Source of the DNA: Eledone cirrhosa
Lineage: Eukaryota
NCBI GenBank assembly: GCA_964016885.1
Contig: OZ024740.1
Coordinates: 253,146,001 to 253,210,000, forward strand
DNA: 64,000 bases
Reading direction: 5' to 3'
The notes under the pieces were generated by a model. It saw nothing but the letters and a program-made list of their open reading frames with translations, did not search any database and was not told the origin of the DNA. Made by a program: the position numbers and the translations under genes. Position 1 is the stretch's first letter, and each line of letters opens with the position of its first letter. Of this stretch, positions 5,611-50,479 are shown piece by piece.

Positions 5611-6119
5611 TAATTTGGGTGTATATGTGCGTATATGAATGCGCGTATATGTATGGGTGTGGAGAGGATATGCAGGAGTATATATGTATATGTGTGTGTG
5701 TGGTTATTTGTCCATATTCGCATGTGGCTGTGTGTGTATCTGGGATTATATAATTATGATTATATACTTGTGTGTGTGTGTGTGTATATGGGTTGAAATA
5801 TGTGTATATATATATATGTGTGTGTGTGAGTATATGCGTATATGTATATAAGTGTGTATGTGCATGCATATGTATATATAGTGCTTATTTATTTATTCCC
5901 AGTTTCATTTTAATTTTGTGTTTACCGTATTTTATTTTATTTTATTTTAGTCGGGTGTGTACCGATATAGCTGTGTATGTGTGCTGGAGAGGATATAAGA
6001 GCGTGTATGTGCAAGTATACACACACACACATGTATATATATATGTATGTGTGTGTCTGGGTTTAATTATATCTATATCTGTGTACATATATATCTGTGT
6101 GTGTGTGTATATATATATA

Positions 6120-12900: not shown

Positions 12901-13070
12901 AAACTAAACTCATGCTCAGAAACAGGATGACAAGTCATCGCCAACAATTACAAGACCCTACCACAAGACAGATACCACTCAGTGCATATCTAGACATAAG
13001 ACACCCACATTCCAAGTCTTCCCACTTTATGTTTGCACTGACAATACAACAGATCAAATACGAATAAATA
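9985..13070 (+). mobile_element. Penelope-like element, degenerate (RT plus GIY-YIG endonuclease)
   Basis: INLS..ILSKGLKFTP, LYGLPKIH, GPIVAG, SFDVVNLY, GTAMGT..A.YANL, WKRYLDDC, then LLYAIKCKGC..YIGQT; many frameshifts. Confidence 0.92.
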
Positions 13071-16575: not shown

Positions 16576-16792
16576 TTCTATATATTTATATCTGTATTTT
16601 TAACCGTAGGTCAATCAATGATAAACATTCATTGCCAAATAAATTAACTATATAAAAGATACAGAAGCGAAAACCAACCAAACAGTGAGTGTGTTCTGTT
16701 ATTATTTCTGGCAATATTATTACAATATGATCCCCCCAAGTATAACAATATTTGTTTCGACACACTATTTCATATTAAAAACCTTGCAAAAC

Positions 16793-16951
<159 letters not shown>

Positions 16952-19552
16952 CTGGCTTGATTTCTACAGCTGGATGCCCTTCCTAACACCAACCTCATTT
17001 ACAGTGAGTGCTGCGTGCTTTTTTCCGTGGTGCCTACACGTCTACTTTACAGTGTGGGCTGGGTGCTTTTTTGCTGTGGCACCTCCACGACCACTTTGCA
17101 GTGGGAGGGTGTGGGGGCATATTGTCTATATGCTTCAGCTTAGGCTTGTACCCGTGGGGGGGGGGGTCTCTTCTGTATTACTGCGTGACGCCAGAGGTCA
17201 CTACCTACACCTTTCCTACATACTGAGCAAGGCCATTTCCCTGAGGGGATCTGGGTTCTGTTTTCTCGTCTACTTACAAGGACCTTAGTCTTTGTCAGGT
17301 TGTCTTTGAGACCCTTTCTTTCTAGTCCCTGCTTCCAAGTTTGGAATTTCTTCTCTATTTCTACCATAGATTCAGCTATAAGTGGGAGGTCATCTGTATA
17401 CAGGAGTTCCCATGGGCATCCGGTCTTAAACTCCTCCGTTATTGCCTTCAGAACTATGATGAACAGGAGAGGGCTAAGAACAGAGCCCTGGTGGACACCG
17501 ACCTGTACGCTAAATTCCTCGCTATAGTCATTGCTAATCCTAACTTTGCTAACTGCTCCCCTATACATGGCTTGTACAGCTCTCACAAGCCATTCATCTA
17601 CTCCTAGTTTTCTAAGAGCCCACCAGATTATAGCACGGGGAACTCTGTCAAAGGCTTTCTCGAGATCGACGAATGCCAGGTACTTTTCCTGTAACTGCCT
17701 CACAAGGAAGAGGGCATCAGTGGTGCCTCTTCCTGGGACAAACCCAAATTGCATCTCATCTAGTTTCACCCGGTCCCTAATCAACTGTGCTATGACTCTT
17801 TCTGTTACTTTCATGACCTGGTCCAGCTTTATACCGCTATAGTTTCCTATACCTAGTGCATCACCTTTACCTTTGTAGCAGTGGACAATGATGCTACTGC
17901 ACCAATCCTTTGGTATGACACCTTCTAGTATTACCTGGTTAACAATACGTGTGGTTATGATGTGACCTACTGACCCAGATGCCTTCAGCATCTCGGCAGC
18001 TATACCCGATGGACCGGTTGCCTTCCCCGTCTTCATATCTTTGATTGCTTTACTTACTATGCTGCTGCTGACTTGCACTGCTAGCTCCTCTATAGGGTCT
18101 ATTTGGTGTAGGGTCTTTTCTTCCCATGCATTCCCTCATTTAGTAATCTATCATAATGGCTCTTCCACGCATCTTTCTTCTCAGCACTTGTGAGGGCAAG
18201 CTCACCTTTATCATTCTGGATACACTTCTCTCCAATGACATCACAATTCTCTCTGACACACTGCCTCACGATCTTGAACACTTCCTGTTTTTGGTCCTCA
18301 CGTTGCAAAACATGCTTGAATTTTCTATCCTCTGTTTCCCTCCTAGCTAAGTATACTTGTCGCTTAGCTTCCCTCCTGGTCTCTATGTAAGGTACCCTGC
18401 TTCCCTGTTCTTCCATTCTTTCGATGCCTGTCTCTTGGCCTTTACTGCCTTATCTACCTTATTGTTCCACCACCAAGTCACTCTCTTCCTGCCTGTGGTC
18501 TTACTCCAGCCACAGATCTCATCCGTCGCCTTTAGTAAGTTATTTTTTAGGAACTCCCAGTGCTCTTCTACATTGAATGTTTCTATCTGTTCTTCTTTAC
18601 TGTCATAGGCGTTGAGTAAAATATCTTTAAATCTGTTACTGGCTGATCTTTCTTCTCCAGGTTGTCTTCTGTTTCCAGGTTCGTCTAGTTCTGACAGGGA
18701 GGTTGCTGACAACTAAGCTATGTTGTGAGGTACATTCCTCACTAGGGAAGGCTTTTGTGACCCGACTGTCCATCTGTCATGTCCTCTGATGAGGATAAAA
18801 TCTATCTGACTAGAATGCTCCCCTGATCTATAGGTGATCAGATGATTGTCGGGTTTTTTGAAGTTTGTGTTACATATCGACATGTCATTGGCGTCGCAGA
18901 ATTCTAGAAGCCTGAAGCTTTCTTCATTTCTTGTGCCAACCCCATGGCCTCCATGGACTCTATAGAAGCCGTCTCGGTGTTTACCTATGTGTCCATTAAA
19001 ATCTCCTGCGATGATTAGGAAGTCATTGTCGTTTGTTAGAGCAGTAGTGTGCATTAGGGACTCGTAAAACTTATCCTTAAGTTCGTTTGGCAACCCCGAT
19101 TGAGGTGCGTAAGCTGATATTATTGTGGTAATTGTTTTATTCAGGACTAGTCTGAGTTTAATGATTCTTGCATTCACCCTGTTCACTGAGATTACCTTAT
19201 CTACCCACTTGTCAGCTAGTAGGATACCTACACCATCCATCCCATCGTCACTTCCCACCCAGAAAAATTTGTAGCGCTGACTTTTTCCTAGAAGGACTCT
19301 AGCAGACTCTCCTCTCCATCTAGTCTCTTGCACACAGCATACATCAACTTCCTTTCGTTCTAGCATCTCTACGACTTCTCCTGCTCTTCCTTTCATTGTG
19401 CTTACATTGATGCTTCCAACTCGGAGTTTTGGGCATTTGTCAACATTTCTGGGAAAGGGTAGATTTTTGCAGGGGTGTGTGTATGCTTCCTGTCTCTGAA
19501 TTGAAGCTTCGCATGGGTGGTTGGTAGCTCGCGGATTCATATTCATTTTCAT
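16952..19552 (-). mobile_element. RTE LINE (APE plus RT) with internal deletion joining the start of the Cys finger to the 3' UTR near 17200
   Basis: VCCVQETRW, SAYAPQ, GDFNGHIG, QIDFIL; QFGFVPGRGT, GVHQGSVLSPLLF, LLYTDDL. Confidence 0.92.
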
Positions 19553-20664: not shown

Positions 20665-20818
20665 GGGACTCGAGTCCTATCATCTCATTTCTACAGCTGA
20701 GTAAACTGGATTAATGTGAAATAAAGTGTCTTGCTCAAGGAAACAACACATCACCCGGTCCGAGAATTGAATTCACAACCTTTCGGTTGCAAGCCCAATG
20801 CTCTAGCCATGCGCCTTC

Positions 20819-20820: not shown

Positions 20821-20882
<62 letters not shown>

Positions 20883-21102
20883 ATTAAGTTAAAAATGTAC
20901 ATCCACATATGTATACTGAAATACTAGTATGCATATGAATACACACACGTATACATATGTAGATGTACCGAGTTTTTCACTGGTCACTTTACTGTGAGTG
21001 TCCAGCTATTCTGTATGTAAACACACAGACAAACCGGTTTTTAGAGTCATACTGGTTTTTGAGGAAACACCTTTCCTCTATTCTCCAGAAAGCCAGACAA
21101 GG

Positions 21103-21147
21103 AATAGTGAACTAGTTTCGATGTTGTTACATCTCATCAGCAATATT
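21103..21147 (-). ncRNA. Type I hammerhead ribozyme (460-bp family), one stem I mismatch
   Basis: Reverse complement: AAUAUUG CUGAUGA GAUGU AACA ACAUC GAAAC UA GUU CACUAUU. Confidence 0.8.
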
Positions 21148-21390
21148 TACCTATCTTCCGGCCTTTCTAGAGAATCGTAAAAGCACATATCGTTATATGC
21201 TTTTTCTATGAAAATTAGTAGTGGGCAGACTAATTTGCATAGAGCGTGAGTACGTACCGGTTCAACGGAGACGATAAAAACAAATAACGAAACGAAATTA
21301 AATTTCGTTTCGTTTGTAACTCACTTTCATAGAAAAAGCATATAACGATATGTGCTTTTACGATTCTCTAGAAAGGCCGGAAGATAGGTA

Positions 21391-21435
21391 AATATTGCTG
21401 ATGAGATGTAACAACATCGAAACTAGTTCAATATT
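21391..21435 (+). ncRNA. Type I hammerhead ribozyme (460-bp family)
   Basis: AAUAUUG CUGAUGA GAUGU AACA ACAUC GAAAC UA GUU^ CAAUAUU: intact core, perfect stems I and II. Confidence 0.9.
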
Positions 21436-21850
21436 CCTTGTCTGGCTTTCTGGAGAATAGAGGAAAGGTGTTTCCTCAAAAACCAGTATGACTCTAAAAA
21501 CCGGTTTGTCTGTGTGTTTACATACAGAATAGCTGGACACTCACAGTAAAGTGACCAGTGAAAAACTCGGTACATATGTATACGTGTGTGTATTCATATG
21601 CATACTAGTATTTCAGTATACATATGTGGATGTACATTTTTAACTTAATTGTTTAAGCGTCAGTCATACAAAAGTGAGTTACAAACGAAACGAAATTTAA
21701 TTTCGTTTCGTTATTTGTTTTTATCGTCTCCGTTGAACCGGTACGTACTCACGCTCTATGCAAATTAGTCTGCCCACTACTAATTTTCATAGAAAAAGCA
21801 TATAACGATATGTGCTTTTACGATTCTCTAGAAAGGCCGGAAGATAGGTA

Positions 21851-21895
21851 AATATTGCTGATGAGATGTAACAACATCGAAACTAGTTTAATATT
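21851..21895 (+). ncRNA. Type I hammerhead ribozyme (460-bp family)
   Basis: As 21391, with a G-U wobble closing stem I. Confidence 0.87.
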
Positions 21896-22183
21896 CCTTG
21901 TCTGGCTTTCTGGAGAATAGAGGAAAGGTGTTTCCTCAAAAACCAGTATGACTCTAAAAACCGGTTTGTCTGTGTGTTTACATACAGAATAGCTGGACAC
22001 TCACAGTAAAGTGACCAGTGAAAAACTCGGTACATCTACATATGTATACGTGTGTGTATTCATATGCATACTAGTATTTCAGTATACATATGTGGATGTA
22101 CATTTTTAACTTAATTGTTTAAGCGTCAGTCATACAAAAGTGAGTTACAAACGAAACGAAATTTAATTTCGTTTCGTTATTTG

Positions 22184-22263
<80 letters not shown>

Positions 22264-22266
<3 letters not shown>

Positions 22267-22835
22267 CCATGTGCAACCATGCAGTATTCTTCTCCCCATG
22301 TTTTTCATATATATTTACCTAAACTGCGATTATCTGTTTCTCTCTTACTGCTCCCCCGTTTACTCTGTTTCTCTTACCTTCTTTCGTCCCCTCTGTCAGT
22401 TAACACTTTCTCTCGACTGACCTCTTCCTCGCACTTCCACTCACTCACTCTCTGTTTCTCCCATTCTCACTTCCTCCCGTTCGCTAGTAGTGGGGTTCCT
22501 TCTTTCTCACACCGCATTCACGGCGTACGGTCTGCTTCTCTGACCGCTCATGAAATTCATCCAGCTTATACTGATCGGATAACTATCATGATTGCTTGCT
22601 GTTTTCCCAACCTTCGGTTTGCTTTTCCTTCTGTTGTTTACTTGTCTCACTCGTTTTACGCGTTTCACTTGTCCCAATAGCTTATTTTAGTTATTGCTCG
22701 CACCAACCTGAGGTATCTGATTTTTAATGCGATGAAATACCAATGATGGTTGGCAAATCACTGATGAGGGACTAATTTTATAATATGTAATCCATGTGCA
22801 ACCATGCAGTATTCTTCTCCCCATGTTTTTCATAT
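22264..22835. mobile_element. Small non-coding element bounded by a ~47-bp direct repeat
   Basis: AATCCATGTGCAACCATGCAGTATTCTTCTCCCCATGTTTTTCATAT at ~22264 and ~22789; lone CTGATGAG at 22771. Confidence 0.5.
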
Positions 22836-22839
22836 ATAT

Positions 22840-23140
22840 ATATAAGTATGTATACGTATGTATATATGTATACAGACGTACAGTAGTATGTATATATACA
22901 TACATGCACACATATATATATGTACGTATGGATTCACCGAACATTTATTATAATGCTCGGTGTGTTTGTAAACAAACATCCCGTATTAAGCCGTAGTGTC
23001 TAGCAACCATCGTTGCTTGTTTGTTAAACACTGACAAAGGAACGCTGTACTAGTTTCAAGCTTATTAGCTATCGTCAGCAACGTATACCTTCCTGCCAGA
23101 TGATTGAACGTCTGAAAGTATATACTTTCCTTATGTATAT
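22840..23140 (-). repeat. Single diverged monomer of the 424-bp family; HHR at 23042-23084
   Basis: Colinear with the array unit; loop II is AAUA instead of AACA. Confidence 0.88.
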
Positions 23141-23169
23141 GGGAAATGAAATTTCGTTTCATTTTTTCG

Positions 23170-23942
23170 TTGCTTTCACCCTTAACGGGATCTTCTGAAA
23201 CTAAAAAATCAATTTGAGGACGCAGAAGTAAATATTTCGAAAAACGTTGCAACCGAAGGAAGACAGGAAGACGATACTTTGGTACGTGGAAACGTTCCAT
23301 GGCAAAGAACGGGAAAAACGAAGATAATACGTCATTATTTGGACCGGTGAAAACAATTACACGCAAAGACAAAACAACGTTTATGGTATAAATGAAGTCG
23401 TAGACTAATATTCTATTAGGTGGTTTGTGGAGACGTTCTCTGGCAATGAACGGAAGAATCGAAGATAATACGTAATTATGTGGAGCCGAGGTTGACTTTG
23501 CCTTTCATCCTTACGGGGTCGATAAAATAAAGTACCAGTAATGCATTGGGTAATTGCTGGCCTTGTGCCTAAAGTAGAAACAATTATGTGGAGCAATAAT
23601 TGTTGAAGCGGTGAAATAATTGTTGCTCCACATATGACGTATTATCTTCGTTTCTTCCGTTCATTGCCAGGGAACGTCTCCACGAACCACCTAATAGAAT
23701 ATTAGTCTACGACTTCATTTATACCATAAACGTTGTTTTGTCTTTGCGAGTAATTGCTTTCACCGCTCCAAATAATGACGTATTATCTTCGTTTCTTTCC
23801 CGTTCTTTGCCAGGGAACGTTTCCACGTACCAAAGTATCGTCTTCCTGTCTTCCTTCGGTTGCAACTTTTTTGGAAATATTTACTTCTGCGTTCACAGAT
23901 TGATTTTTTTAGTTTCAGAAGATTCCGTTAAGGGTGAAAGCA
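23170..23942. repeat. Long inverted repeat (arms about 23170-23486 and 23622-23942) upstream of the PLE ORF
   Basis: Mirror ORFs MSLRVI..NNDVLSSF on both strands; arms are reverse complements with scattered differences. Confidence 0.9.
23487..23581 (+). mobile_element. SINE, 5'-truncated, 13-bp TSD
   Basis: AATTATGTGGAGC at 23474-23486 and 23582-23594. Confidence 0.9.
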
Positions 23943-24063
23943 GCGATTCTTTGCTTAAACTTTAATGTTATTTTAATAAATATTTGATATATATTTATCC
24001 TTATCGAGCTCTCTTTGGATTTTAGTCTTCAAATTTATTATTATTACTATTTGGCTCCCTCGG

Positions 24064-25269
24064 TTGAGCACTCTATTGATCATGCAGAAACAACATCTGA
24101 ATATTTCTACAAAGAACATACCCATACCGAGCAGGAAAACATACCTAAAACTCCTGATACAGAAAACAGATGCGTTCATTAAAAGGTTGCGTTGGCGTGC
24201 CTTTTATTTCGATAATCAGGGAAAAGCGGACAACAAACAGGATAAATTTGGGTTTAAAACCTACAATAACCCACCGAGTAACTCAGCATTGCTACCCTTC
24301 GAAAATGTTGTCTTGGAACTCATACGGAGTATTAAATTTCGGAATAGGAGCAATTCCTTCCAGCAGGACCTGAACAATAGAATTCGTTCTATTAAGGATT
24401 CTAATGCCGTGCACGTCCACTCCGACAAAACTGGCAATCTATATCAAGTGGAGCGCAGTACTTACCATCAACTGCTACATAATGCTGTAACTAAGGATTA
24501 CCGTAAAACTAATCGGAGCGTCATTAATGAGATCAACGATGCTGGGTTTAAAATCACCTCTGATCTCAACATCTTGGACCGGACCAGACCGAACCTCTGG
24601 ACCCTATTTCTCCCCACTTTACCCTGAAGAATCACAAATCCAATTTCCCGAACAACCCCTCTATTCGGCTTATTAACCCTACGAAGTCCGATTTAGGTAG
24701 ACTTAGTAAAAGGATTTTAGATAAAATTATACCTGAAATTAGAAGTTTGGCCCCTCTTGCACTGTGGAACAATTCTTTCGCGGTGATTGATTGGTTCAAC
24801 GGCATATGCAACAAGGAACATTGCCGTTTTATCCAATTCGACATCAATAATTACTACTTCTCCACCACTTAGAGCTATCAATTTCGCTAAAACACTCACA
24901 GTGGTTAAGGATTTCGAAGTTGATGTCATCCTCAATGCCCGTAAGTCGGTGATTAATTTCGACGACTCTATTTGGATTAAAAAATCTAATAGTACCCCAT
25001 TCGACGTGAGTATGGGCGCCAGCGATTCTGCGGAGGTTACTGATCTTATCGGCCTTTTCCGTCTTTATTCTATCAAGTAAGAATTCCCCAACGTGGGCGG
25101 TGGTTTGTACCGTGATAACAAAGTGCGGCCCACGTACTTACGACAGATTCAGAAAAGAACTCACAACCTTCTTTAAAGGCTTCAACCTCTCTATACAGGT
25201 TGAGGCCAACCTCTCGGTTGTTAATTACCTCGACGTTACTCTCAATTTGTCGAATGGCTTGCACTACCC

Positions 25270-25270
<1 letters not shown>
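24064..25270 (+). pseudogene. Penelope-like RT (GLYRD-type), frameshifted, endonuclease part absent
   Basis: STKNIPIP..FIKRLRWRAFYF, SDKTGNLY, IRLINPTKSDLG, VIDWF, FIQFDI, FDVSMGASDSAEV, GLYRD, NYLDVTLNL. Confidence 0.87.
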
Positions 25271-25299
<29 letters not shown>

Positions 25300-25303
<4 letters not shown>

Positions 25304-25703
25304 TTTCGAACGTTCAACTATCTGGCAGATGGGTAAACGGTGCTGATGATAGCTAACAAGCTTGAAACTAGTACATCGTTCCTGTGTCAGTGTTGAACAA
25401 AAAGGTGACGTGGTTGCCTTAACACCGTATAGCATAAATTCAGGCTGTTCGGTTTGTTGACAAACAAACGAACAAAGCGGCGTTGTAATAAATGTTCGCT
25501 AAACTGATGCGTGCATATATGTATGTGTACCTGTATGCATATATGTATATATATGTATATATATGTATATATATATATATGTATATATATGCATGCTACT
25601 GTACGTCTGTATACATATATGTATGTACGTATACATACATACTTACATTTAAGTAAGTGCCATACTAAGAGTGAGAAATGAAATTTCGTTTTCATTTTTT
25701 TCA
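25300..25703 (+). repeat. Diverged monomer of the 424-bp family downstream of the PLE RT; HHR at 25336-25380
   Basis: AACGGUG CUGAUGA UAGCU AACA AGCUU GAAAC UA GUA CAUCGUU; the rest is colinear with the array unit. Confidence 0.88.
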
Positions 25704-25704
25704 A

Positions 25705-25796
<92 letters not shown>

Positions 25797-25797
<1 letters not shown>

Positions 25798-28700
25798 CGG
25801 AAAAAATGAAACGATATTTCATTTCCCACTCTTAGTACGGCTGTTACTTAAATATAAGTATGTACACGTACATACATATATGTATACCGACGTACAGTAG
25901 TATGTATATATATATATATACATACATGCACACATATATATATGCACGTATGGATTCACCGAACATTTATTATAATGCTCGGTGTGTTTGTAAACAAACA
26001 TCCCGTATTAAGCCGTAGTGTCTAGCAACCACCGTTGCTCGTTTGTTCAACACTGACAAAGGAACGCTGTACTAGTTTCAAGCTTGTTAGCTATCGTCAG
26101 CAACGTATACCTTCCTGCCAGATTGTTGAACGTATATACTTACCTTATGCATATTAACGGCTGAGTAGCCCAATATGCATATCGAGTGGGTTAATCGGCC
26201 GGGTGCACCGAAAACGATAAACGGAAAAAATGAAACGATATTTCATTTCCCACTCTTAGTACGGCTGTTACTTAAATATAAGTATGTACACGTACATACA
26301 TATATGTATACCGACGTACAGTAGTATGTATATATATATATATACATACATGCACACATATATATATGCACGTATGGATTCACCGAACATTTATTATAAT
26401 GCTCGGTGTGTTTGTAAACAAACATCCCGTATTAAGCCGTAGTGTCTAGCAACCACCGTTGCTCGTTTGTTCAACACTGACAAAGGAACGCTGTACTAGT
26501 TTCAAGCTTGTTAGCTATCGTCAGCAACGTATACCTTCCTGCCAGATTGTTGAACGTATATACTTACCTTATGCATATTAACGGCTGAGTAGCCCAATAT
26601 GCATATCGAGTGGGTTAATCGGCCGGGTGCACCGAAAACGATAAACGGAAAAAATGAAACGATATTTCATTTCCCACTCTTAGTACGGCTGTTACTTAAA
26701 TATAAGTATGTACACGTACATACATATATGTATACCGACGTACAGTAGTATGTATATATATATATATACATACATGCACACATATATATATGCACGTATG
26801 GATTCACCGAACATTTATTATAATGCTCGGTGTGTTTGTAAACAAACATCCCGTATTAAGCCGTAGTGTCTAGCAACCACCGTTGCTCGTTTGTTCAACA
26901 CTGACAAAGGAACGCTGTACTAGTTTCAAGCTTGTTAGCTATCGTCAGCAACGTATACCTTCCTGCCAGATTGTTGAACGTATATACTTACCTTATGCAT
27001 ATTAACGGCTGAGTAGCCCAATATGCATATCGAGTGGGTTAATCGGCCGGGTGCACCGAAAACGATAAACGGAAAAAATGAAACGATATTTCATTTCCCA
27101 CTCTTAGTACGGCTGTTACTTAAATATAAGTATGTACACGTACATACATATATGTATACCGACGTACAGTAGTATGTATATATATATATATACATACATG
27201 CACACATATATATATGCACGTATGGATTCACCGAACATTTATTATAATGCTCGGTGTGTTTGTAAACAAACATCCCGTATTAAGCCGTAGTGTCTAGCAA
27301 CCACCGTTGCTCGTTTGTTCAACACTGACAAAGGAACGCTGTACTAGTTTCAAGCTTGTTAGCTATCGTCAGCAACGTATACCTTCCTGCCAGATTGTTG
27401 AACGTATATACTTACCTTATGCATATTAACGGCTGAGTAGCCCAATATGCATATCGAGTGGGTTAATCGGCCGGGTGCACCGAAAACGATAAACGGAAAA
27501 AATGAAACGATATTTCATTTCCCACTCTTAGTACGGCTGTTACTTAAATATAAGTATGTACACGTACATACATATATGTATACCGACGTACAGTAGTATG
27601 TATATATATATATATACATACATGCACACATATATATATGCACGTATGGATTCACCGAACATTTATTATAATGCTCGGTGTGTTTGTAAACAAACATCCC
27701 GTATTAAGCCGTAGTGTCTAGCAACCACCGTTGCTCGTTTGTTCAACACTGACAAAGGAACGCTGTACTAGTTTCAAGCTTGTTAGCTATCGTCAGCAAC
27801 GTATACCTTCCTGCCAGATTGTTGAACGTATATACTTACCTTATGCATATTAACGGCTGAGTAGCCCAATATGCATATCGAGTGGGTTAATCGGCCGGGT
27901 GCACCGAAAACGATAAACGGAAAAAATGAAACGATATTTCATTTCCCACTCTTAGTACGGCTGTTACTTAAATATAAGTATGTACACGTACATACATATA
28001 TGTATACCGACGTACAGTAGTATGTATATATATATATATACATACATGCACACATATATATATGCACGTATGGATTCACCGAACATTTATTATAATGCTC
28101 GGTGTGTTTGTAAACAAACATCCCGTATTAAGCCGTAGTGTCTAGCAACCACCGTTGCTCGTTTGTTCAACACTGACAAAGGAACGCTGTACTAGTTTCA
28201 AGCTTGTTAGCTATCGTCAGCAACGTATACCTTCCTGCCAGATTGTTGAACGTATATACTTACCTTATGCATATTAACGGCTGAGTAGCCCAATATGCAT
28301 ATCGAGTGGGTTAATCGGCCGGGTGCACCGAAAACGATAAACGGAAAAAATGAAACGATATTTCATTTCCCACTCTTAGTACGGCTGTTACTTAAATATA
28401 AGTATGTACACGTACATACATATATGTATACCGACGTACAGTAGTATGTATATATATATATATACATACATGCACACATATATATATGCACGTATGGATT
28501 CACCGAACATTTATTATAATGCTCGGTGTGTTTGTAAACAAACATCCCGTATTAAGCCGTAGTGTCTAGCAACCACCGTTGCTCGTTTGTTCAACACTGA
28601 CAAAGGAACGCTGTACTAGTTTCAAGCTTGTTAGCTATCGTCAGCAACGTATACCTTCCTGCCAGATTGTTGAACGTATATACTTACCTTATGCATATTA

Positions 28701-31700
28701 ACGGCTGAGTAGCCCAATATGCATATCGAGTGGGTTAATCGGCCGGGTGCACCGAAAACGATAAACGGAAAAAATGAAACGATATTTCATTTCCCACTCT
28801 TAGTACGGCTGTTACTTAAATATAAGTATGTACACGTACATACATATATGTATACCGACGTACAGTAGTATGTATATATATATATATACATACATGCACA
28901 CATATATATATGCACGTATGGATTCACCGAACATTTATTATAATGCTCGGTGTGTTTGTAAACAAACATCCCGTATTAAGCCGTAGTGTCTAGCAACCAC
29001 CGTTGCTCGTTTGTTCAACACTGACAAAGGAACGCTGTACTAGTTTCAAGCTTGTTAGCTATCGTCAGCAACGTATACCTTCCTGCCAGATTGTTGAACG
29101 TATATACTTACCTTATGCATATTAACGGCTGAGTAGCCCAATATGCATATCGAGTGGGTTAATCGGCCGGGTGCACCGAAAACGATAAACGGAAAAAATG
29201 AAACGATATTTCATTTCCCACTCTTAGTACGGCTGTTACTTAAATATAAGTATGTACACGTACATACATATATGTATACCGACGTACAGTAGTATGTATA
29301 TATATATATATACATACATGCACACATATATATATGCACGTATGGATTCACCGAACATTTATTATAATGCTCGGTGTGTTTGTAAACAAACATCCCGTAT
29401 TAAGCCGTAGTGTCTAGCAACCACCGTTGCTCGTTTGTTCAACACTGACAAAGGAACGCTGTACTAGTTTCAAGCTTGTTAGCTATCGTCAGCAACGTAT
29501 ACCTTCCTGCCAGATTGTTGAACGTATATACTTACCTTATGCATATTAACGGCTGAGTAGCCCAATATGCATATCGAGTGGGTTAATCGGCCGGGTGCAC
29601 CGAAAACGATAAACGGAAAAAATGAAACGATATTTCATTTCCCACTCTTAGTACGGCTGTTACTTAAATATAAGTATGTACACGTACATACATATATGTA
29701 TACCGACGTACAGTAGTATGTATATATATATATATACATACATGCACACATATATATATGCACGTATGGATTCACCGAACATTTATTATAATGCTCGGTG
29801 TGTTTGTAAACAAACATCCCGTATTAAGCCGTAGTGTCTAGCAACCACCGTTGCTCGTTTGTTCAACACTGACAAAGGAACGCTGTACTAGTTTCAAGCT
29901 TGTTAGCTATCGTCAGCAACGTATACCTTCCTGCCAGATTGTTGAACGTATATACTTACCTTATGCATATTAACGGCTGAGTAGCCCAATATGCATATCG
30001 AGTGGGTTAATCGGCCGGGTGCACCGAAAACGATAAACGGAAAAAATGAAACGATATTTCATTTCCCACTCTTAGTACGGCTGTTACTTAAATATAAGTA
30101 TGTACACGTACATACATATATGTATACCGACGTACAGTAGTATGTATATATATATATATACATACATGCACACATATATATATGCACGTATGGATTCACC
30201 GAACATTTATTATAATGCTCGGTGTGTTTGTAAACAAACATCCCGTATTAAGCCGTAGTGTCTAGCAACCACCGTTGCTCGTTTGTTCAACACTGACAAA
30301 GGAACGCTGTACTAGTTTCAAGCTTGTTAGCTATCGTCAGCAACGTATACCTTCCTGCCAGATTGTTGAACGTATATACTTACCTTATGCATATTAACGG
30401 CTGAGTAGCCCAATATGCATATCGAGTGGGTTAATCGGCCGGGTGCACCGAAAACGATAAACGGAAAATGAAACGATATTTCATTTCCCACTCTTAGTAC
30501 GGCTGTTACTTAAATATAAGTATGTACACGTACATACATATATGTATACCGACGTACAGTAGTATGTATATATATATATATATACATACATGCACACATA
30601 TATATATGCACGTATGGATTCACCGAACATTTATTATAATGCTCGGTGTGTTTGTAAACAAACATCCCGTATTAAGCCGTAGTGTCTAGCAACCACCGTT
30701 GCTCGTTTGTTCAACACTGACAAAGGAACGCTGTACTAGTTTCAAGCTTGTTAGCTATCGTCAGCAACGTATACCTTCCTGCCAGATTGTTGAACGTATA
30801 TACTTACCTTATGCATATTAACGGCTGAGTAGCCCAATATGCATATCGAGTGGGTTAATCGGCCGGGTGCACCGAAAACGATAAACGGAAAAAATGAAAC
30901 GATATTTCATTTCCCACTCTTAGTACGGCTGTTACTTAAATATAAGTATGTACACGTACATACATATATGTATACCGACGTACAGTAGTATGTATATATA
31001 TATATATACATACATGCACACATATATATATGCACGTATGGATTCACCGAACATTTATTATAATGCTCGGTGTGTTTGTAAACAAACATCCCGTATTAAG
31101 CCGTAGTGTCTAGCAACCACCGTTGCTCGTTTGTTCAACACTGACAAAGGAACGCTGTACTAGTTTCAAGCTTGTTAGCTATCGTCAGCAACGTATACCT
31201 TCCTGCCAGATTGTTGAACGTATATACTTACCTTATGCATATTAACGGCTGAGTAGCCCAATATGCATATCGAGTGGGTTAATCGGCCGGGTGCACCGAA
31301 AACGATAAACGGAAAAAATGAAACGATATTTCATTTCCCACTCTTAGTACGGCTGTTACTTAAATATAAGTATGTACACGTACATACATATATGTATACC
31401 GACGTACAGTAGTATGTATATATATATATATACATACATGCACACATATATATATGCACGTATGGATTCACCGAACATTTATTATAATGCTCGGTGTGTT
31501 TGTAAACAAACATCCCGTATTAAGCCGTAGTGTCTAGCAACCACCGTTGCTCGTTTGTTCAACACTGACAAAGGAACGCTGTACTAGTTTCAAGCTTGTT
31601 AGCTATCGTCAGCAACGTATACCTTCCTGCCAGATTGTTGAACGTATATACTTACCTTATGCATATTAACGGCTGAGTAGCCCAATATGCATATCGAGTG

Positions 31701-34521
31701 GGTTAATCGGCCGGGTGCACCGAAAACGATAAACGGAAAAAATGAAACGATATTTCATTTCCCACTCTTAGTACGGCTGTTACTTAAATATAAGTATGTA
31801 CACGTACATACATATATGTATACCGACGTACAGTAGTATGTATATATATATATATACATACATGCACACATATATATATGCACGTATGGATTCACCGAAC
31901 ATTTATTATAATGCTCGGTGTGTTTGTAAACAAACATCCCGTATTAAGCCGTAGTGTCTAGCAACCACCGTTGCTCGTTTGTTCAACACTGACAAAGGAA
32001 CGCTGTACTAGTTTCAAGCTTGTTAGCTATCGTCAGCAACGTATACCTTCCTGCCAGATTGTTGAACGTATATACTTACCTTATGCATATTAACGGCTGA
32101 GTAGCCCAATATGCATATCGAGTGGGTTAATCGGCCGGGTGCACCGAAAACGATAAACGGAAAAAATGAAACGATATTTCATTTCCCACTCTTAGTACGG
32201 CTGTTACTTAAATATAAGTATGTACACGTACATACATATATGTATACCGACGTACAGTAGTATGTATATATATATATATATACATACATGCACACATATA
32301 TATATGCACGTATGGATTCACCGAACATGTATTATAATGCTCGGTGTGTTTGTAAACAAACATCCCGTATTAAGCCGTAGTGTCTAGCAACCACCGTTGC
32401 TCGTTTGTTCAACACTGACAAAGGAACGCTGTACTAGTTTCAAGCTTGTTAGCTATCGTCAGCAACGTATACCTTCCTGCCAGATTGTTGAACGTATATA
32501 CTTACCTTATGCATATTAACGGCTGAGTAGCCCAATATGCATATCGAGTGGGTTAATCGGCCGGGTGCACCGAAAACGATAAACGGAAAAAATGAAACGA
32601 TATTTCATTTCCCACTCTTAGTACGGCTGTTACTTAAATATAAGTATGTACACGTACATACATATATGTATACCGACGTACAGTAGTATGTATATATATA
32701 TATATACATACATGCACACATATATATATGCACGTATGGATTCACCGAACATTTATTATAATGCTCGGTGTGTTTGTAAACAAACATCCCGTATTAAGCC
32801 GTAGTGTCTAGCAACCACCGTTGCTCGTTTGTTCAACACTGACAAAGGAACGCTGTACTAGTTTCAAGCTTGTTAGCTATCGTCAGCAACGTATACCTTC
32901 CTGCCAGATTGTTGAACGTATATACTTACCTTATGCATATTAACGGCTGAGTAGCCCAATATGCATATCGAGTGGGTTAATCGGCCGGGTGCACCGAAAA
33001 CGATAAACGGAAAAAATGAAACGATATTTCATTTCCCACTCTTAGTACGGCTGTTACTTAAATATAAGTATGTACACGTACATACATATATGTATACCGA
33101 CGTACAGTAGTATGTATATATATATATATACATACATGCACACATATATATATGCACGTATGGATTCACCGAACATTTATTATAATGCTCGGTGTGTTTG
33201 TAAACAAACATCCCGTATTAAGCCGTAGTGTCTAGCAACCACCGTTGCTCGTTTGTTCAACACTGACAAAGGAACGCTGTACTAGTTTCAAGCTTGTTAG
33301 CTATCGTCAGCAACGTATACCTTCCTGCCAGATTGTTGAACGTATATACTTACCTTATGCATATTAACGGCTGAGTAGCCCAATATGCATATCGAGTGGG
33401 TTAATCGGCCGGGTGCACCGAAAACGATAAACGGAAAAAATGAAACGATATTTCATTTCCCACTCTTAGTACGGCTGTTACTTAAATATAAGTATGTACA
33501 CGTACATACATATATGTATACCGACGTACAGTAGTATGTATATATATATATATACATACATGCACACATATATATATGCACGTATGGATTCACCGAACAT
33601 TTATTATAATGCTCGGTGTGTTTGTAAACAAACATCCCGTATTAAGCCGTAGTGTCTAGCAACCACCGTTGCTCGTTTGTTCAACACTGACAAAGGAACG
33701 CTGTACTAGTTTCAAGCTTGTTAGCTATCGTCAGCAACGTATACCTTCCTGCCAGATTGTTGAACGTATATACTTACCTTATGCATATTAACGGCTGAGT
33801 AGCCCAATATGCATATCGAGTGGGTTAATCGGCCGGGTGCACCGAAAACGATAAACGGAAAAAATGAAACGATATTTCATTTCCCACTCTTAGTACGGCT
33901 GTTACTTAAATATAAGTATGTACACGTACATACATATATGTATACCGACGTACAGTAGTATGTATATATATATATATACATACATGCACACATATATATA
34001 TGCACGTATGGATTCACCGAACATTTATTATAATGCTCGGTGTGTTTGTAAACAAACATCCCGTATTAAGCCGTAGTGTCTAGCAACCACCGTTGCTCGT
34101 TTGTTCAACACTGACAAAGGAACGCTGTACTAGTTTCAAGCTTGTTAGCTATCGTCAGCAACGTATACCTTCCTGCCAGATTGTTGAACGTATATACTTA
34201 CCTTATGCATATTAACGGCTGAGTAGCCCAATATGCATATCGAGTGGGTTAATCGGCCGGGTGCACCGAAAACGATAAACGGAAAAAATGAAACGATATT
34301 TCATTTCCCACTCTTAGTACGGCTGTTACTTAAATATAAGTATGTACACGTACATACATATATGTATACCGACGTACAGTAGTATGTATATATATATATA
34401 TACATACATGCACACATATATATATGCACGTATGGATTCACCGAACATTTATTATAATGCTCGGTGTGTTTGTAAACAAACATCCCGTATTAAGCCGTAG
34501 TGTCTAGCAACCACCGTTGCT
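25797..34521 (-). repeat. 424-bp HHR satellite, block 1 (~20.6 units, 20 HHRs on the minus strand)
   Basis: Exact 424-bp period in the ORF track; units almost identical. Confidence 0.97.
26064..26106 (-). ncRNA. Type I hammerhead ribozyme, first array copy (repeats every ~424 bp)
   Basis: Reverse complement: ACGUUG CUGACGA UAGCU AACA AGCUU GAAAC UA GUA^ CAGCGU. Confidence 0.87.
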
Positions 34522-34523
34522 AG

Positions 34524-37500
34524 TACTGTACGTCGGTATACATATATGTATGTACGTGTACATACTTATATTTAAGTAACAGCCGTACTAAGAGTGGGAA
34601 ATGAAATATCGTTTCATTTTTTTCCGTTTATCGTTTTCGGTGCACCCGGCCGATTAACCCACTCGATATGCATATTGGGCTACTCAGCCGTTAATATGCA
34701 TAAGGTAAGTATATACGTTCAACAATCTGGCAGGAAGGTATACGTTGCTGACGATAGCTAACAAGCTTGAAACTAGTACAGCGTTCCTTTGTCAGTGTTG
34801 AACAAACGAGCAACGGTGGTTGCTAGACACTACGGCTTAATACGGGATGTTTGTTTACAAACACACCGAGCATTATAATAAATGTTCGGGTGAATCCATA
34901 CGTGCATATATATATGTGTGCATGTATGTATATATATATATATACATACTACTGTACGTCGGTATACATATATGTATGTACGTGTACATACTTATATTTA
35001 AGTAACAGCCGTACTAAGAGTGGGAAATGAAATATCGTTTCATTTTTTCCGTTTATCGTTTTCGGTGCACCCGGCCGATTAACCCACTCGATATGCATAT
35101 TGGGCTACTCAGCCGTTAATATGCATAAGGTAAGTATATACGTTCAACAATCTGGCAGGAAGGTATACGTTGCTGACGATAGCTAACAAGCTTGAAACTA
35201 GTACAGCGTTCCTTTGTCAGTGTTGAACAAACGAGCAACGGTGGTTGCTAGACACTACGGCTTAATACGGGATGTTTGTTTACAAACACACCGAGCATTA
35301 TAATAAATGTTCGGTGAATCCATACGTGCATATATATATGTGTGCATGTATGTATATATATATATATACATACTACTGTACGTCGGTATACATATATGTA
35401 TGTACGTGTACATACTTATATTTAAGTAACAGCCGTACTAAGAGTGGGAAATGAAATATCGTTTCATTTTTTCCGTTTATCGTTTTCGGTGCACCCGGCC
35501 GATTAACCCACTCGATATGCATATTGGGCTACTCAGCCGTTAATATGCATAAGGTAAGTATATACGTTCAACAATCTGGCAGGAAGGTATACGTTGCTGA
35601 CGATAGCTAACAAGCTTGAAACTAGTACAGCGTTCCTTTGTCAGTGTTGAACAAACGAGCAACGGTGGTTGCTAGACACTACGGCTTAATACGGGATGTT
35701 TGTTTACAAACACACCGAGCATTATAATAAATGTTCGGTGAATCCATACGTGCATATATATATGTGTGCATGTATGTATATATATATATATACATACTAC
35801 TGTACGTCGGTATACATATATGTATGTACGTGTACATACTTATATTTAAGTAACAGCCGTACTAAGAGTGGGAAATGAAATATCGTTTCATTTTTTCCGT
35901 TTATCGTTTTCGGTGCACCCGGCCGATTAACCCACTCGATATGCATATTGGGCTACTCAGCCGTTAATATGCATAAGGTAAGTATATACGTTCAACAATC
36001 TGGCAGGAAGGTATACGTTGCTGACGATAGCTAACAAGCTTGAAACTAGTACAGCGTTCCTTTGTCAGTGTTGAACAAACGAGCAACGGTGGTTGCTAGA
36101 CACTACGGCTTAATACGGGATGTTTGTTTACAAACACACCGAGCATTATAATAAATGTTCGGTGAATCCATACGTGCATATATATATGTGTGCATGTATG
36201 TATATATATATATATACATACTACTGTACGTCGGTATACATATATGTATGTACGTGTACATACTTATATTTAAGTAACAGCCGTACTAAGAGTGGGAAAT
36301 GAAATATCGTTTCATTTTTTCCGTTTATCGTTTTCGGTGCACCCGGCCGATTAACCCACTCGATATGCATATTGGGCTACTCAGCCGTTAATATGCATAA
36401 GGTAAGTATATACGTTCAACAATCTGGCAGGAAGGTATACGTTGCTGACGATAGCTAACAAGCTTGAAACTAGTACAGCGTTCCTTTGTCAGTGTTGAAC
36501 AAACGAGCAACGGTGGTTGCTAGACACTACGGCTTAATACGGGATGTTTGTTTACAAACACACCGAGCATTATAATAAATGTTCGGTGAATCCATACGTG
36601 CATATATATATGTGTGCATGTATGTATATATATATATATATACATACTACTGTACGTCGGTATACATATATGTATGTACGTGTACATACTTATATTTAAG
36701 TAACAGCCGTACTAAGAGTGGGAAATGAAATATCGTTTCATTTTTTCCGTTTATCGTTTTCGGTGCACCCGGCCGATTAACCCACTCGATATGCATATTG
36801 GGCTACTCAGCCGTTAATATGCATAAGGTAAGTATATACGTTCAACAATCTGGCAGGAAGGTATACGTTGCTGACGATAGCTAACAAGCTTGAAACTAGT
36901 ACAGCGTTCCTTTGTCAGTGTTGAACAAACGAGCAACGGTGGTTGCTAGACACTACGGCTTAATACGGGATGTTTGTTTACAAACACACCGAGCATTATA
37001 ATAAATGTTCGGTGAATCCATACGTGCATATATATATGTGTGCATGTATGTATATATATATATATACATACTACTGTACGTCGGTATACATATATGTATG
37101 TACGTGTACATACTTATATTTAAGTAACAGCCGTACTAAGAGTGGGAAATGAAATATCGTTTCATTTTTTCCGTTTATCGTTTTCGGTGCACCCGGCCGA
37201 TTAACCCACTCGATATGCATATTGGGCTACTCAGCCGTTAATATGCATAAGGTAAGTATATACGTTCAACAATCTGGCAGGAAGGTATACGTTGCTGACG
37301 ATAGCTAACAAGCTTGAAACTAGTACAGCGTTCCTTTGTCAGTGTTGAACAAACGAGCAACGGTGGTTGCTAGACACTACGGCTTAATACGGGATGTTTG
37401 TTTACAAACACACCGAGCATTATAATAAATGTTCGGTGAATCCATACGTGCATATATATATGTGTGCATGTATGTATATATATATATATATACATACTAC

Positions 37501-37643
37501 TGTACGTCGGTATACATATATGTATGTACGTGTACATACTTATATTTAAGTAACAGCCGTACTAAGAGTGGGAAATGAAATATCGTTTCATTTTTTCCGT
37601 TTATCGTTTTCGGTGCACCCGGCCGATTAACCCACTCGATATG
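34524..37643 (+). repeat. 424-bp HHR satellite, block 2, inverted (~7.4 units, 7 HHRs on the plus strand)
   Basis: Reverse complement of the block 1 unit; HHRs at about 34742, 35167, 35591, 36015, 36439, 36865, 37289. Confidence 0.97.
35167..35209 (+). ncRNA. Type I hammerhead ribozyme, representative plus-strand copy; predicted cleavage after 35203
   Basis: CTGACGA 35173-35179, stem II 35180-35193, GAAAC 35194-35198, GTA 35201-35203; stem I extends to about 35142/35228. Confidence 0.87.
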
Positions 37644-37843
37644 NNNNNNNNNNNNNNNNNNNNNNNNNNNNNNNNNNNNNNNNNNNNNNNNNNNNNNNNN
37701 NNNNNNNNNNNNNNNNNNNNNNNNNNNNNNNNNNNNNNNNNNNNNNNNNNNNNNNNNNNNNNNNNNNNNNNNNNNNNNNNNNNNNNNNNNNNNNNNNNNN
37801 NNNNNNNNNNNNNNNNNNNNNNNNNNNNNNNNNNNNNNNNNNN
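37644..37843. other. Assembly gap (200 N)
   Basis: Run of N inside the satellite. Confidence 0.99.
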
Positions 37844-40800
37844 TCGAGTGGGTTAATCGGCCGGGTGCACCGAAAACGATAAACGGAAAAAATGAAACGA
37901 TATTTCATTTCCCACTCTTAGTACGGCTGTTACTTAAATATAAGTAATGTACACGTACATACATATATGTATACCGACGTACAGTAGTATGTATATATAT
38001 ATATATACATACATGCACACATATATATATGCACGTATGGATTCACCGAACATTTATTATAATGCTCGGTGTGTTTGTAAACAAACATCCCGTATTAAAG
38101 CCGTAGTGTCTAGCAACCACCGTTGCTCGTTTGTTCAACACTGACAAAGGAACGCTGTACTAGTTTCAAGCTTGTTAGCTATCGTCAGCAACGGTATACC
38201 TTCCTGCCAGATTGTTGAACGTATATACTTACCTTATGCATATTAACGGCTGAGTAGCCCAATATGCATATCGAGTGGGTTAATCGGCCGGGTGCACCGA
38301 AAACGATAAACGGAAAAAATGAAACGATATTTCATTTCCCACTCTTAGTACGGCTGTTACTTAAATATAAGTATGTACACGTACATACATATATGTATAC
38401 CGACGTACAGTAGTATGTATATATATATATATATACATACATGCACACATATATATATGCACGTATGGATTCACCGAACATTTATTATAATGCTCGGTGT
38501 GTTTGTAAACAAACATCCCGTATTAAGCCGTAGTGTCTAGCAACCACCGTTGCTCGTTTGTTCAACACTGACAAAGGAACGCTGTACTAGTTTCAAGCTT
38601 GTTAGCTATCGTCAGCAACGTATACCTTCCTGCCAGATTGTTGAACGTATATACTTACCTTATGCATATTAACGGCTGAGTAGCCCAATATGCATATCGA
38701 GTGGTGGGTTAATCGGCCGGGTGCACCGAAAACGATAAACGGAAAAAATGAAACGATATTTCATTTCCCACTCTTAGTACGGCTGTTACTTAAATATAAG
38801 TATGTACACGTACATACATATATGTATACCGACGTACAGTAGTATGTATATATATATATATACATACATGCACACATATATATATGCACGTATGGATTCA
38901 CCGAACATTTATTATAATGCTCGGTGTGTTTGTAAACAAACATCCCGTATTAAGCCGTAGTGTCTAGCAACCACCGTTGCTCGTTTGTTCAACACTGACA
39001 AAGGAACGCTGTACTAGTTTCAAGCTTGTTAGCTATCGTCAGCAACGTATACCTTCCTGCCAGATTGTTGAACGTATATACTTACCTTATGCATATTAAC
39101 GGCTGAGTAGCCCAATATGCATATCGAGTGGGTTAATCGGCCGGGTGCACCGAAAACGATAAACGGAAAAAATGAAACGATATTTCATTTCCCACTCTTA
39201 GTACGGCTGTTACTTAAATATAAGTATGTACACGTACATACATATATGTATACCGACGTACAGTAGTATGTATATATATATATATACATACATGCACACA
39301 TATATATATGCACGTATGGATTCACCGAACATTTATTATAATGCTCGGTGTGTTTGTAAACAAACATCCCGTATTAAGCCGTAGTGTCTAGCAACCACCG
39401 TTGCTCGTTTGTTCAACACTGACAAAGGAACGCTGTACTAGTTTCAAGCTTGTTAGCTATCGTCAGCAACGTATACCTTCCTGCCAGATTGTTGAACGTA
39501 TATACTTACCTTATGCATATTAACGGCTGAGTAGCCCAATATGCATATCGAGTGGGTTAATCGGCCGGGTGCACCGAAAACGATAAACGGAAAAAATGAA
39601 ACGATATTTCATTTCCCACTCTTAGTACGGCTGTTACTTAAATATAAGTATGTACACGTACATACATATATGTATACCGACGTAACAGTTAGTATGTATA
39701 TATATATATATACATACATGCACACATATATATATGCACGTATGGATTCAACCGAACATTTATTATAATGCTCGGTGTGTTTGTAAACAAACATCCCGTA
39801 TTAAGCCGTAGTGTCCTAGCAACCACCGTTGCTCGTTTGTTCAACACTGACAAAGGAACGCTGTACTAGTTTCAAGCTTGTTAGCTATCGTCAGCAACGT
39901 ATACCTTCCTGCCAGATTGTTGAACGTATATACTTACCTTATGCATATTAACGGCTGAGTAGCCCAATATGCATATCGAGTGGGTAATCGGCCGGGGTGC
40001 ACCGGAAAACGATAAACGGAAAAAATGAAACGATATTTCATTTCCCACTCTTAGTACGGCTGTTACTTAAATATAAGTATGTACACGTACATACATATAT
40101 GTATACCGACGTACAGTAGTATGTATATATATATATATACATACATGCACACATATATATATGCACGTATGGATTCACCGAACATTTATTATAATGCTCG
40201 GTGTGTTTGTAAACAAACATCCCGTATTAAGCCGTAGTGTCTAGCAACCACCGTTGCTCGTTTGTTCAACACTGACAAAGGAACGCTGTACTAGTTTCAA
40301 GCTTGTTAGCTATCGTCAGCAACGTATACCTTCCTGCCAGATTGTTGAACGTATATACTTACCTTATGCATATTAACGGCTGAGTAGCCCAATATGCATA
40401 TCGAGTGGGGTTAATCGGCCCGGGTGCACCGAAAACGATAAACGGAAAAAAATGAAACGATATTTCATTTCCCACTCTTAGTACGGCTGTTACTTAAATA
40501 TAAGTATGTACACGTACATACATATATGTATACCGACGTACAGTAGTATGTATATATATATATATACATACATGCACACATATATATATGCACGTATGGA
40601 TTCACCGAACATTTATTATAATGCTCGGTGTGTTTGTAAACAAACATCCCGTATTAAGCCGTAGTGTCTAGCATACCACCGTTGCTCGTTTGTTCAACAC
40701 TGACAAAGGAACGCTTGTACTAGTTTCAAGCTTGTTAGCTATCGTCAGCAACGTATACCCTTCCTGCCAGATTGTTGAACGTATATACTTACCTTATGCA

Positions 40801-41486
40801 TATTAACGGCTGAGTAGCCCAATATGCATATCGAGTGGGTTAATCGGCCCGGGTGCACCGAAAACGATAAACGGAAAAAAATGAAAACGATATTTCATTT
40901 CCCACTCTTAGTACGGCTGTTACTTAAATATAAGTATGTACACGTACATACATATATGTATACCGACACGTACAGTAGTAATGTATATATATATATATAC
41001 ATAACATGCACACATATATATATGCACGTATGGATTCACCGAACATTTATTATAATGCTCGGTGTGTTTGTAAACAAACATCCAGTATTTAAGCCGTAGT
41101 GTCTAGCAACCACCCGTTTGCTCGTTTGTTCAACACTGACAAAGGAACGCTGTACTAGTTTCAAGCTTGTTAGCTATCGTCAGCAACGTATACCTTCCTG
41201 CCAGATTGTTGAACGTATATACTTACCTTATGCATATTAACGGCTGAGTAGCCCCAATATGCATATCGAGTGGGTTAATCGGCCGGGGTGCACCGAAAAC
41301 GATAAACGGAAAAAAATGAAACGATATTTCATTTCCCACTCTTAGTACGGCTGTTACTTAAATATAAGTATGTACACGTACATACATATATGTATACCCG
41401 ACGTACAGTAGTATGTATATATATATATATATACATACATGCACACATATATATATGCACGTATGGATTCACCGAACATTTATTAT
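37844..41486 (-). repeat. 424-bp HHR satellite, block 3 (~8.5 units, 8 HHRs), many 1-nt insertions
   Basis: Same orientation as block 1; ends in a (TA)n tract. Confidence 0.95.
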
Positions 41487-41799
41487 ATATATATATATAT
41501 ATATAATATTATAAAGCTGAGTGTCGTGTGTATGTATTATGTATGTAACCTACACACTTCCCTATAGTTTCTTAGCTTTACTCTCTCCGTCGCTCTTCCC
41601 TCTCTCTAATAATAGATCATTCCCCTCTCTATAATTTAACTGCTTTACTCTCTCTGTCGGTCTTCACTCCGTCGTTCTTTCCTCTCTCTATAATCACACA
41701 CACATCTACAGAGAGAGAGACATAATATCAGAGGGAGGGGAAAAAGAGAGAGATAGGCCGTTAGGACAGAGACAGATACAATTAAAGTATTAGTTATTC

Positions 41800-50417: not shown

Positions 50418-50434
50418 CGTCTTTCTCTCCCTGT

Positions 50435-50479
<45 letters not shown>

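Follow-up and report, generated by a model that had tools for sequence, protein, structure and literature searches.

A two-armed retrozyme insertion in a (TA)n tract with the anatomy of Penelope-type retroposition

The feature at 20880..22185 of the window (the whole 64,000-nucleotide stretch of Eledone cirrhosa DNA analyzed here) is one insertion in (TA)n, made of an inverted 447-bp arm and an 861-bp arm. We read it, with considerable confidence, as a single two-armed insertion of a 466-bp retrozyme that was reverse-transcribed into (TA)n by a Hydra-clade Penelope protein. The broader reading, RNA-mediated insertion of Penelope type, we hold more firmly still. Insertion anatomy makes the Hydra clade (H1, H2 or a relative) the probable source of the partner. 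The repeat itself is an animal non-LTR retrozyme and belongs to a real, large family of a known class; what is new is that the Penelope signature can be read so precisely, and that arrays may be argued to arise in one step.

Movement of animal hammerhead repeats has so far been a hypothesis, with Penelope suspected from co-occurrence and pLTR similarity. Reverse transcription of circles was proposed for animal retrozymes, with Penelope-like elements as candidates (Cervera and de la Pena 2020, PMC7229834). Here the Penelope signature is seen at nucleotide precision, together with young copies and intact candidate proteins in one genome. This opens three questions to direct assay: whether the template is circular, whether each strand has a different start site, and which protein acts.

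Anatomy of the insertion

As shown in Table 1, the insertion lies between two TA tracts and its arms meet at a short microhomology. The pattern scan found three hammerhead cores in it, two on the plus strand (460 apart) and one on the minus strand. Elsewhere in the window it found cores at -23078 and +25343, and 35 within the 424-bp array; only one strand of the unit bears the hammerhead. The first full unit of the right arm is 460 bp and has a 6-bp deletion near 21575. The usual family A unit is 466 bp, and the 460 bp of the window is this deletion variant. The tail at the right end contains the AAACGAAACGAAAT hairpin and some of the closing helix of the central domain.

Table 1. Features of the insertion and its neighbors in the window. 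Family A unit positions are counted from the predicted cleavage site.
Feature	Position	Strand	Details
Left flank (TA)29, likely insertion target	20822..20879		tract sequence
Left inverted arm, family A, 447 bp	20881..21327	-	outer end T1 (unit position 228-229), inner end 249
Left-arm hammerhead core	21110..21140	-	GUU triplet; stem I mismatch at 21107
Arm junction	21325..21327		3-nt microhomology TTT; unit positions 249 / 363
Right arm, 861 bp, ~1.9 units	21325..22185	+	outer end T2 (unit position ~297)
Type I hammerhead, extended stem I	21363..21458	+	core 21398-21428; predicted cleavage after 21428 (GUU)
Second plus-strand hammerhead	21823..21918	+	core 21858-21888; G.U replacing G-C at stem I base (21889)
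Tail, ~69 nt, T1-to-T2 segment	22117..22185	+	at one insertion end only
Right flank (TA)40	22186..22264		tract sequence
Sister B-type insertion (D)	22835..23165	-	core -23078..23048; left end is T1-homologous site
Broken Hydra-type Penelope-like element, H1 copy	23167..25274	+	candidate partner family
Sister family C unit	25303..25706	+	core 25343-25373; T2-homologous end, then (TA)45
Family B (424 bp) array	25797..41487		20.6 minus units from T2 end; switch 34521-34524

Three mutually exclusive patterns matched 2,603, 14,978 and 26,739 cores in the 3.0-Gb assembly, 44,320 in all, and the reversed controls gave 0. These cores cover family A, its variant A', families B, C and G, and a 310-bp family E that can barely be aligned. 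With looser patterns, dispersed families of greater age come in as well (1,255 matches against 190 in the control, and 212 against 44). Such older hammerhead families were observed at L111-L114 and L127 (family F, homologous to B along the unit) and at L117-L119 and L124-L126. The copies are dispersed, mostly have 1-5 units and have fixed ends; they are not the few large clustered arrays without fixed ends expected of a satellite. The loci studied lie mostly in the first 100 Mb of contig C1, the contig of the window. They were picked through intact cores, so the sample is skewed to young copies.

In an insertion the minus arm lies to the left of the plus arm, both face outwards and each runs into (TA)n; the inner junctions vary freely. 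In family A the outer ends fall at T1 (228-233) or T2 (297-302), about 70 nt apart, and neither is the cleavage site. Both ends were resolved by motif at 23 of 30 loci, and all 23 insertions carry T1 at one end and T2 at the other (12 with T1 on the left, 11 with T2 on the left). The remaining 7 loci have one end resolved. Family B ends at 221 and 277, which are homologous to T1 and T2; these ends were taken from BLAST because automated calling of B and C was noisy, the T1 motif also matching TA-rich DNA. Family E ends at 140 and 166, and the 7 loci resolved out of 8 were all mixed. A target duplication of 14 bp was seen at a family E insertion whose target is not pure (TA)n; at most other loci the (TA)n would mask any such duplication.

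The signature of a non-autonomous Penelope element is present: an inverted 5'-truncated copy, a tail at one end and a microsatellite target. Insertions of the Penelope/Hydra clade likewise have the inverted 5'-truncated copy, the one-end tail and the (TA)n target (Craig et al. 2021, PMC8557442). Compared with these, the repeat here is non-coding and has many tandem units per arm, and the tail is 26-74 nt in its families against 30-40 bp in Penelope-like elements (PMC8557442). The PAc Poseidon protein makes nicks in AT-rich DNA; from there it extends both strands, and it uses two internal RNA starts that bound a tail (Frangieh et al. 2024, PMC11167929). Two tail-bounding internal starts, extension of both strands, an AT-rich target and a predicted dimer are features that our case would share with that system (PMC11167929). 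T1 and T2 may naturally be read as two internal start sites bounding the tail, as in PMC11167929. The PAc work noted no difference in start site between the strands (PMC11167929), whereas here each insertion has one of each. That study makes no mention of retrozymes or circular templates (PMC11167929).

Two other origins of the inverted arm were rejected. Fold-back copying does not fit, as the inner junctions differ between the arms and either arm can be the longer. Neither does L1-type twin priming, as neither outer end varies and the two arms have sequence in common. As far as their accessible parts go, the retrozyme accounts propose Penelope mobilization but describe neither inverted arms nor a pair of fixed ends nor shared haplotypes (PMC7229834; bioRxiv 10.64898/2026.07.22.740005). 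A search of largely open-access literature gave no description of this family or of a two-site retrozyme anatomy.

The earlier note had concluded from covariation that the family replicates through RNA. That conclusion holds, and the Penelope-type insertion anatomy is the stronger evidence for it; covariation alone is insufficient, since an RNA maintained by the host would covary too. "Through RNA" here means RNA-to-DNA retroposition, and we saw no sign of RNA-to-RNA replication.

The hammerhead and selection on its fold

The unit has no ORF of at least 120 aa and no LTR, and its GC content is 37%. It carries a type I hammerhead motif with CUGANGA, GAAA and NUH around three helices and an open stem I. 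Rfam at the gathering score gave 0 matches to hammerhead models. Short tandem non-coding units with one type I hammerhead each and a GC content below 50% are the marks of a retrozyme, and the animal non-LTR retrozymes share them (PMC7229834; bioRxiv 10.64898/2026.07.22.740005). They also share the strongly self-paired predicted circle and the presence of Penelope-like elements in the same genome. With 420-540 bp, the unit here is at or above the 150-450 bp first described for animal retrozymes. Compared with satellite 2 of newt and axolotl, it has the same weak palindromic stem III, expected to act as a dimer (per PMC7229834), a U.U as the bottom pair of stem II, like axolotl HHR_Amex2, and similarly tens of thousands of copies. 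It differs in sequence and unit size, and its loop III has 2 nt against 4 nt.

The predicted fold of the circular monomer has a z of about -11 in family A and -10.5 in family B. Families A, B and C all conserve a GGUA bulge and a UAA(C/U)AA loop, candidate elements of a tertiary contact between loop I and loop II. Shuffled sequences fold much less well than either strand (antisense z -4 to -9.5), and the fold is more stable on the hammerhead strand than on its complement in A, B and C, though in E not in raw energy.

Every motif quoted in the earlier note was found in its place, although not all that had been drawn from the motifs stood. It had described a diverged 460-bp sister array. The unit of family A is indeed colinear with the 424-bp unit of family B and diverged from it: the global score is 33, against -236 +/- 17 for 200 dinucleotide shuffles, and identity is 300/484 columns (62%) in the global alignment or 250/406 aligned positions by MAFFT. 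A head-to-tail array it is not, nor is 460 its usual length. The core motifs are also in place, but loop II AACA and ACUAGU are not invariant, as AAUA, ACAUGU and ACGCGU occur in sister families. The exchange of stem II GAUGU/ACAUC for AGCU/AGCU is present and folds; its bottom pair, from G-C to U.U, is not compensatory. The three versions of stem I are likewise correct, and all of them fold. In two of the window's three copies, stem I has a change, an A-to-C mismatch at 21107 and a C-to-T at 21889 that gives G.U. The distal part of stem I had been offered as covariation as well. Here the arms of A and B cannot be aligned base for base; this is a helix replacement and not countable covariation.

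Among 22 hand-picked hammerheads, 90% of cells pair and 10 of 13 pairs have double changes. Their covariation score was 0.545, compared with 0.203 for shuffled columns and at most 0.116 for slid partners. Because the shuffle control ignores relatedness, we wrote a tree-aware test of the R-scape kind (tree, parsimony, re-placed substitutions and a G-test with APC) and applied it to 80 distinct 51-mers. Pairs of stem II took the top 4 places among 1128 column pairs, and two of them reached E=0.01 and 0.05. In stem I the best pair had rank 7 and E=3.3, and would be significant only if the test were restricted to structure pairs. The covariation of stem II is significant over all pairs in the tree-aware test. 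On the whole unit, RNAalifold gave 75 pairs, 22 with double changes, and these included a long-range helix outside the ribozyme. Covariation per pair was weak there (1/73 at two-set E=0.04), and on inner branches 8 double changes were counted against 1.2 expected, both with the structure taken from the same alignment.

Comparing core and flank conservation in copies found by the core pattern is circular. Flank-anchored searches, which leave the 31-nt core free, were therefore used. For families B, C and G (22,744 matches), a core change was seen by eye in 11 of the 100 copies listed; the changes were spread over eight positions, with at most 3 at any one. The common variants among these 100 fell at position 7, in loop II and in one stem I pair, which was U.G in 49, G.U in 42, A-U in 7 and unpaired in 2. 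For family A (9,131 matches, control 1) there were 0 core changes in the 100 copies listed, many of which are rows from the same arrays; one stem II pair was A-U in 70 copies, U-A in the other 30 and in none of them of an intermediate kind. In these flank-anchored samples, core changes are sporadic and the common variants lie at free or compensated positions.

We called a variant shared if it occurred in at least 3 loci, took the structure from one sequence and skipped TA-rich and end regions. In family A (35 loci), shared variants broke confident stems in 8 cases and kept them in 13, compared with 59 and 16 for private variants (p=0.0008). In family B (17 loci), the counts were 3 and 9 for shared against 45 and 20 for private variants (p=0.007). 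The shared variants are not fully independent of each other. Lineage-level variants break stems far less, which together with the tree-aware covariation of stem II upholds the claim that selection acts on RNA structure. The sequence variants suggest that it likely acts between insertions and that genomic copies decay neutrally; the fold would then be selected only at the RNA step. The shared-versus-private comparison in this way locates the stage at which a parasitic RNA fold is selected.

Template, array birth and rival explanations

We propose the following route. Arrays would be transcribed, and the hammerheads, with a 2-bp stem III and the palindromic ACUAGU, would cut, probably as dimers. 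A host ligase would close the monomer circles. A Penelope protein dimer would bind one RNA and nick both strands of (TA)n, and from each DNA 3' end reverse transcription would start at an internal site of the RNA, T1 for one end and T2 for the other. Both cDNAs would cross the ribozyme junction, run on for a variable number of units and be joined by microhomology. Some long arrays would expand later at the DNA level. A circle could serve as the template, since internal priming needs no RNA 3' end, and the cDNAs here pass over the ribozyme junction many times. One site per end and one haplotype per insertion suggest a dimer acting on a single RNA.

In 21 loci and the window, unit divergence was 0.72% within an arm, 0.84% between the arms of one insertion and 3.42% between loci, and private variants occur on both arms of one insertion. 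Gene conversion could also cause the likeness of the arms. The insertion at C1:30.83 Mb has 7.35 + 13 units that are identical save one junction base, and some 20 identical units in one insertion suggest one-step birth. At L075, a variant is present on the outermost units of both arms and missing from the inner ones; a monomer circle would not yield such a pattern, so it counts against that template. Periodicity was found at L121 (9 units), C1:69.5 Mb (6 units), C1:81.85 Mb (mixed) and L107 (2 units). The long arrays L121, L133-L134, L135, L107 and L136 were observed to have higher-order periodicity (9, mixed, 6 and 2 units) or interleaved haplotypes. The periodic arrays and L075 point to multimeric templates, gene conversion or later growth as DNA. 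The statement in the earlier note that the family replicates through RNA rather than drifting as a DNA satellite is, in its second half, too strong in view of the several long arrays with 2-, 6- or 9-unit periodicity.

On whether the monomer circle was the main template, and not uncleaved or multimeric RNA, our judgment is evenly balanced. That whole kilobase arrays are born in one event, by a dimer on one ribozyme-made RNA circle with primings at two fixed internal sites from the two ends of a cut (TA)n tract and up to tens of turns, is put forward tentatively. If true, it would be genomic evidence that a circular RNA was copied into an animal chromosome by rolling-circle reverse transcription, it would give a one-site-per-strand rule in Penelope priming, and satellite arrays would be seeded ready-made by a viroid-like parasite selected only as RNA. 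The arrays would then show one way in which an RNA circle can become satellite DNA.

Penelope-driven insertion could also have started from a source-array transcript, linear or multimeric, that had not been cleaved. The hammerhead would then serve another step (RNA stability, export or escape from silencing), and the circles would be by-products. We find this somewhat doubtful. The mirrored terminal haplotype of L075 and the periodic haplotypes of L107, L121, L133-134 and L135 fit it well. So does the GUU of families A and A', a slower triplet; A2/A3 have GUC and B has GUA. In vitro, moreover, PAc inserted without need for ribozyme cleavage and unprocessed RNA was the main substrate (PMC11167929). 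However, 20 identical units with private haplotypes on both arms would ask for a very long transcript that escaped about 13 ribozymes, and the cores are intact in every high-copy lineage. Growth of retroposed 1-2-unit seeds by unequal exchange or slippage, like a satellite (the route of bioRxiv 10.64898/2026.07.22.740005), would account for the 2-, 6- and 9-unit periodicity and the block duplications in the longest arrays. It is nevertheless unlikely: in the arrays with the lowest divergence, both arms have reached great length already and the T1 and T2 ends are intact, and both arms would have had to expand and homogenize separately before any mutation.

Readings that dispense with retroposition fare worse. 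An RNA copied from RNA like a viroid and occasionally endogenized would explain the circular fold (z about -11) and the compensatory turnover between subfamilies, but the hammerhead is on one polarity, the predicted fold is branched and the tens of thousands of genomic copies could supply the RNA; we consider it highly improbable. A DNA-only foldback, MITE or Helitron-like satellite, with hairpins that covary through single-strand folding or quasi-palindrome repair, is already largely excluded, and we give it hardly any credence. The hairpin-rich unit and the folding of both strands beyond shuffles are what it would predict. Against it, the hammerhead core is conserved between families whose identity is 62% or which can barely be aligned, G.U pairs and stability favor the hammerhead strand (A, B and C), and fixed unequal outer ends with variable inner junctions are not terminal inverted repeats.

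Candidate partners and neighboring elements

The window ORF at 24082-25274 belongs to family H1, which has many 713-aa open frames among its best 150 matches. H2 is a second intact Hydra-type family of 714-715 aa and ~4.3 kb with a long TA-rich 3' UTR (L181-L195). Motifs from natural ORFs were compared with PMC8557442, and both families have those of the Hydra clade: RWK (RWR in H1), DKT, a CxCX5C linker, a C-terminal GIY-YIG with CxxC/CxH, and a (TA)n target. Pfam gave no match to H1. Both have two ends in (TA)n. The distance between the ends is ~87 nt in H1 and ~66-70 nt in H2, where 5 of 6 two-armed cases were mixed. The units of A, B, C and E have no homology to the UTRs or pLTR of H1 and H2 beyond TA-rich low complexity; the partner is therefore assigned by anatomy only. 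In Xenopus, retrozymes have pLTR homology (Li et al., bioRxiv 10.64898/2026.07.22.740005), whereas here there is none to H1 or H2. Unit C was considered as the H1 pLTR and rejected, as the 3' UTR of 12 intact H1 copies is unrelated to it. Upstream of dispersed hammerheads at 40 loci, no convincing same-strand partner ORF was found.

The 3' UTR of H2 contains two copies of a canonical-looking hammerhead with a 12-bp stem II. A hammerhead-shaped motif also lies just before the 3' end of H1, at 23911-23961 (+) in the window, at L052 and at other H1 loci. Its core is CAGAAGA (A for U at position 4), its stem III has 5 bp, and it has 16,698 matches; among the 100 matches listed, 97 have CAGAAGA and 0 have CUGA. 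Its predicted minimum-energy fold is a different one, so it may be inactive or a variant ribozyme. Within the H1 3' UTR there is an internal duplication of 141-143 bp, seen in the window at 23280-23484 and 23657-23832. L110 has two copies, inverted to each other (3473-4324 and 5746-6596), of a segment in which a third Hydra-type endonuclease fragment joins a B/C retrozyme unit.

In the window, the H1 copy consists of an inverted piece of 3' UTR (23167-23486, minus), a pLTR (23625-23983) and the ORF from 24082, cut in the middle of the RT. At 25262-25310 this ORF ends at (TA)16 and meets the 5'-truncated C unit at a common TATA; the remainder of H1 is absent from the window. Either a deletion made this junction, or reverse transcription switched template between the RNAs of the retrozyme and H1. 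Beyond its switch, the family B array has at least 7.3 plus units, a gap and then a minus block. This block (37644-41487, past a gap of 200 N) is rich in indels and has a 5'-truncated end in TA. It is likely unpolished assembly or a second insertion.

In two of four sequencing runs (X5 and X6), the unit appeared as one closed-loop contig of 495-496 nt (unit length + 30). It matches 21244-22136 of the window, and most differences preserve base pairs. The abundant repeat at 20700-20813 was absent from all contigs of X5 and X6. A tandem array would explain the closed loop no less well than a circle would, and it was for this reason set aside as evidence.

A non-coding element of ~520 bp lies between TA tracts at 22265-22842 and has a terminal 53-bp partial tandem. 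Its relatives in L089, L097, L107 and L132 are 75-97% identical. It has CTGATGAG near its end but lacks a complete hammerhead, and it looks like another non-autonomous element of Penelope type. Broken ORF pieces with RT and GIY-YIG-like motifs, which we take to be of Penelope/Neptune type, were found at 10020-13067 and 49729-50613. Several kinds of broken non-LTR retrotransposon ORFs are present at 4906-5753, 6140-8902, 15456-19552, 42295-45036 and 59789-62400.
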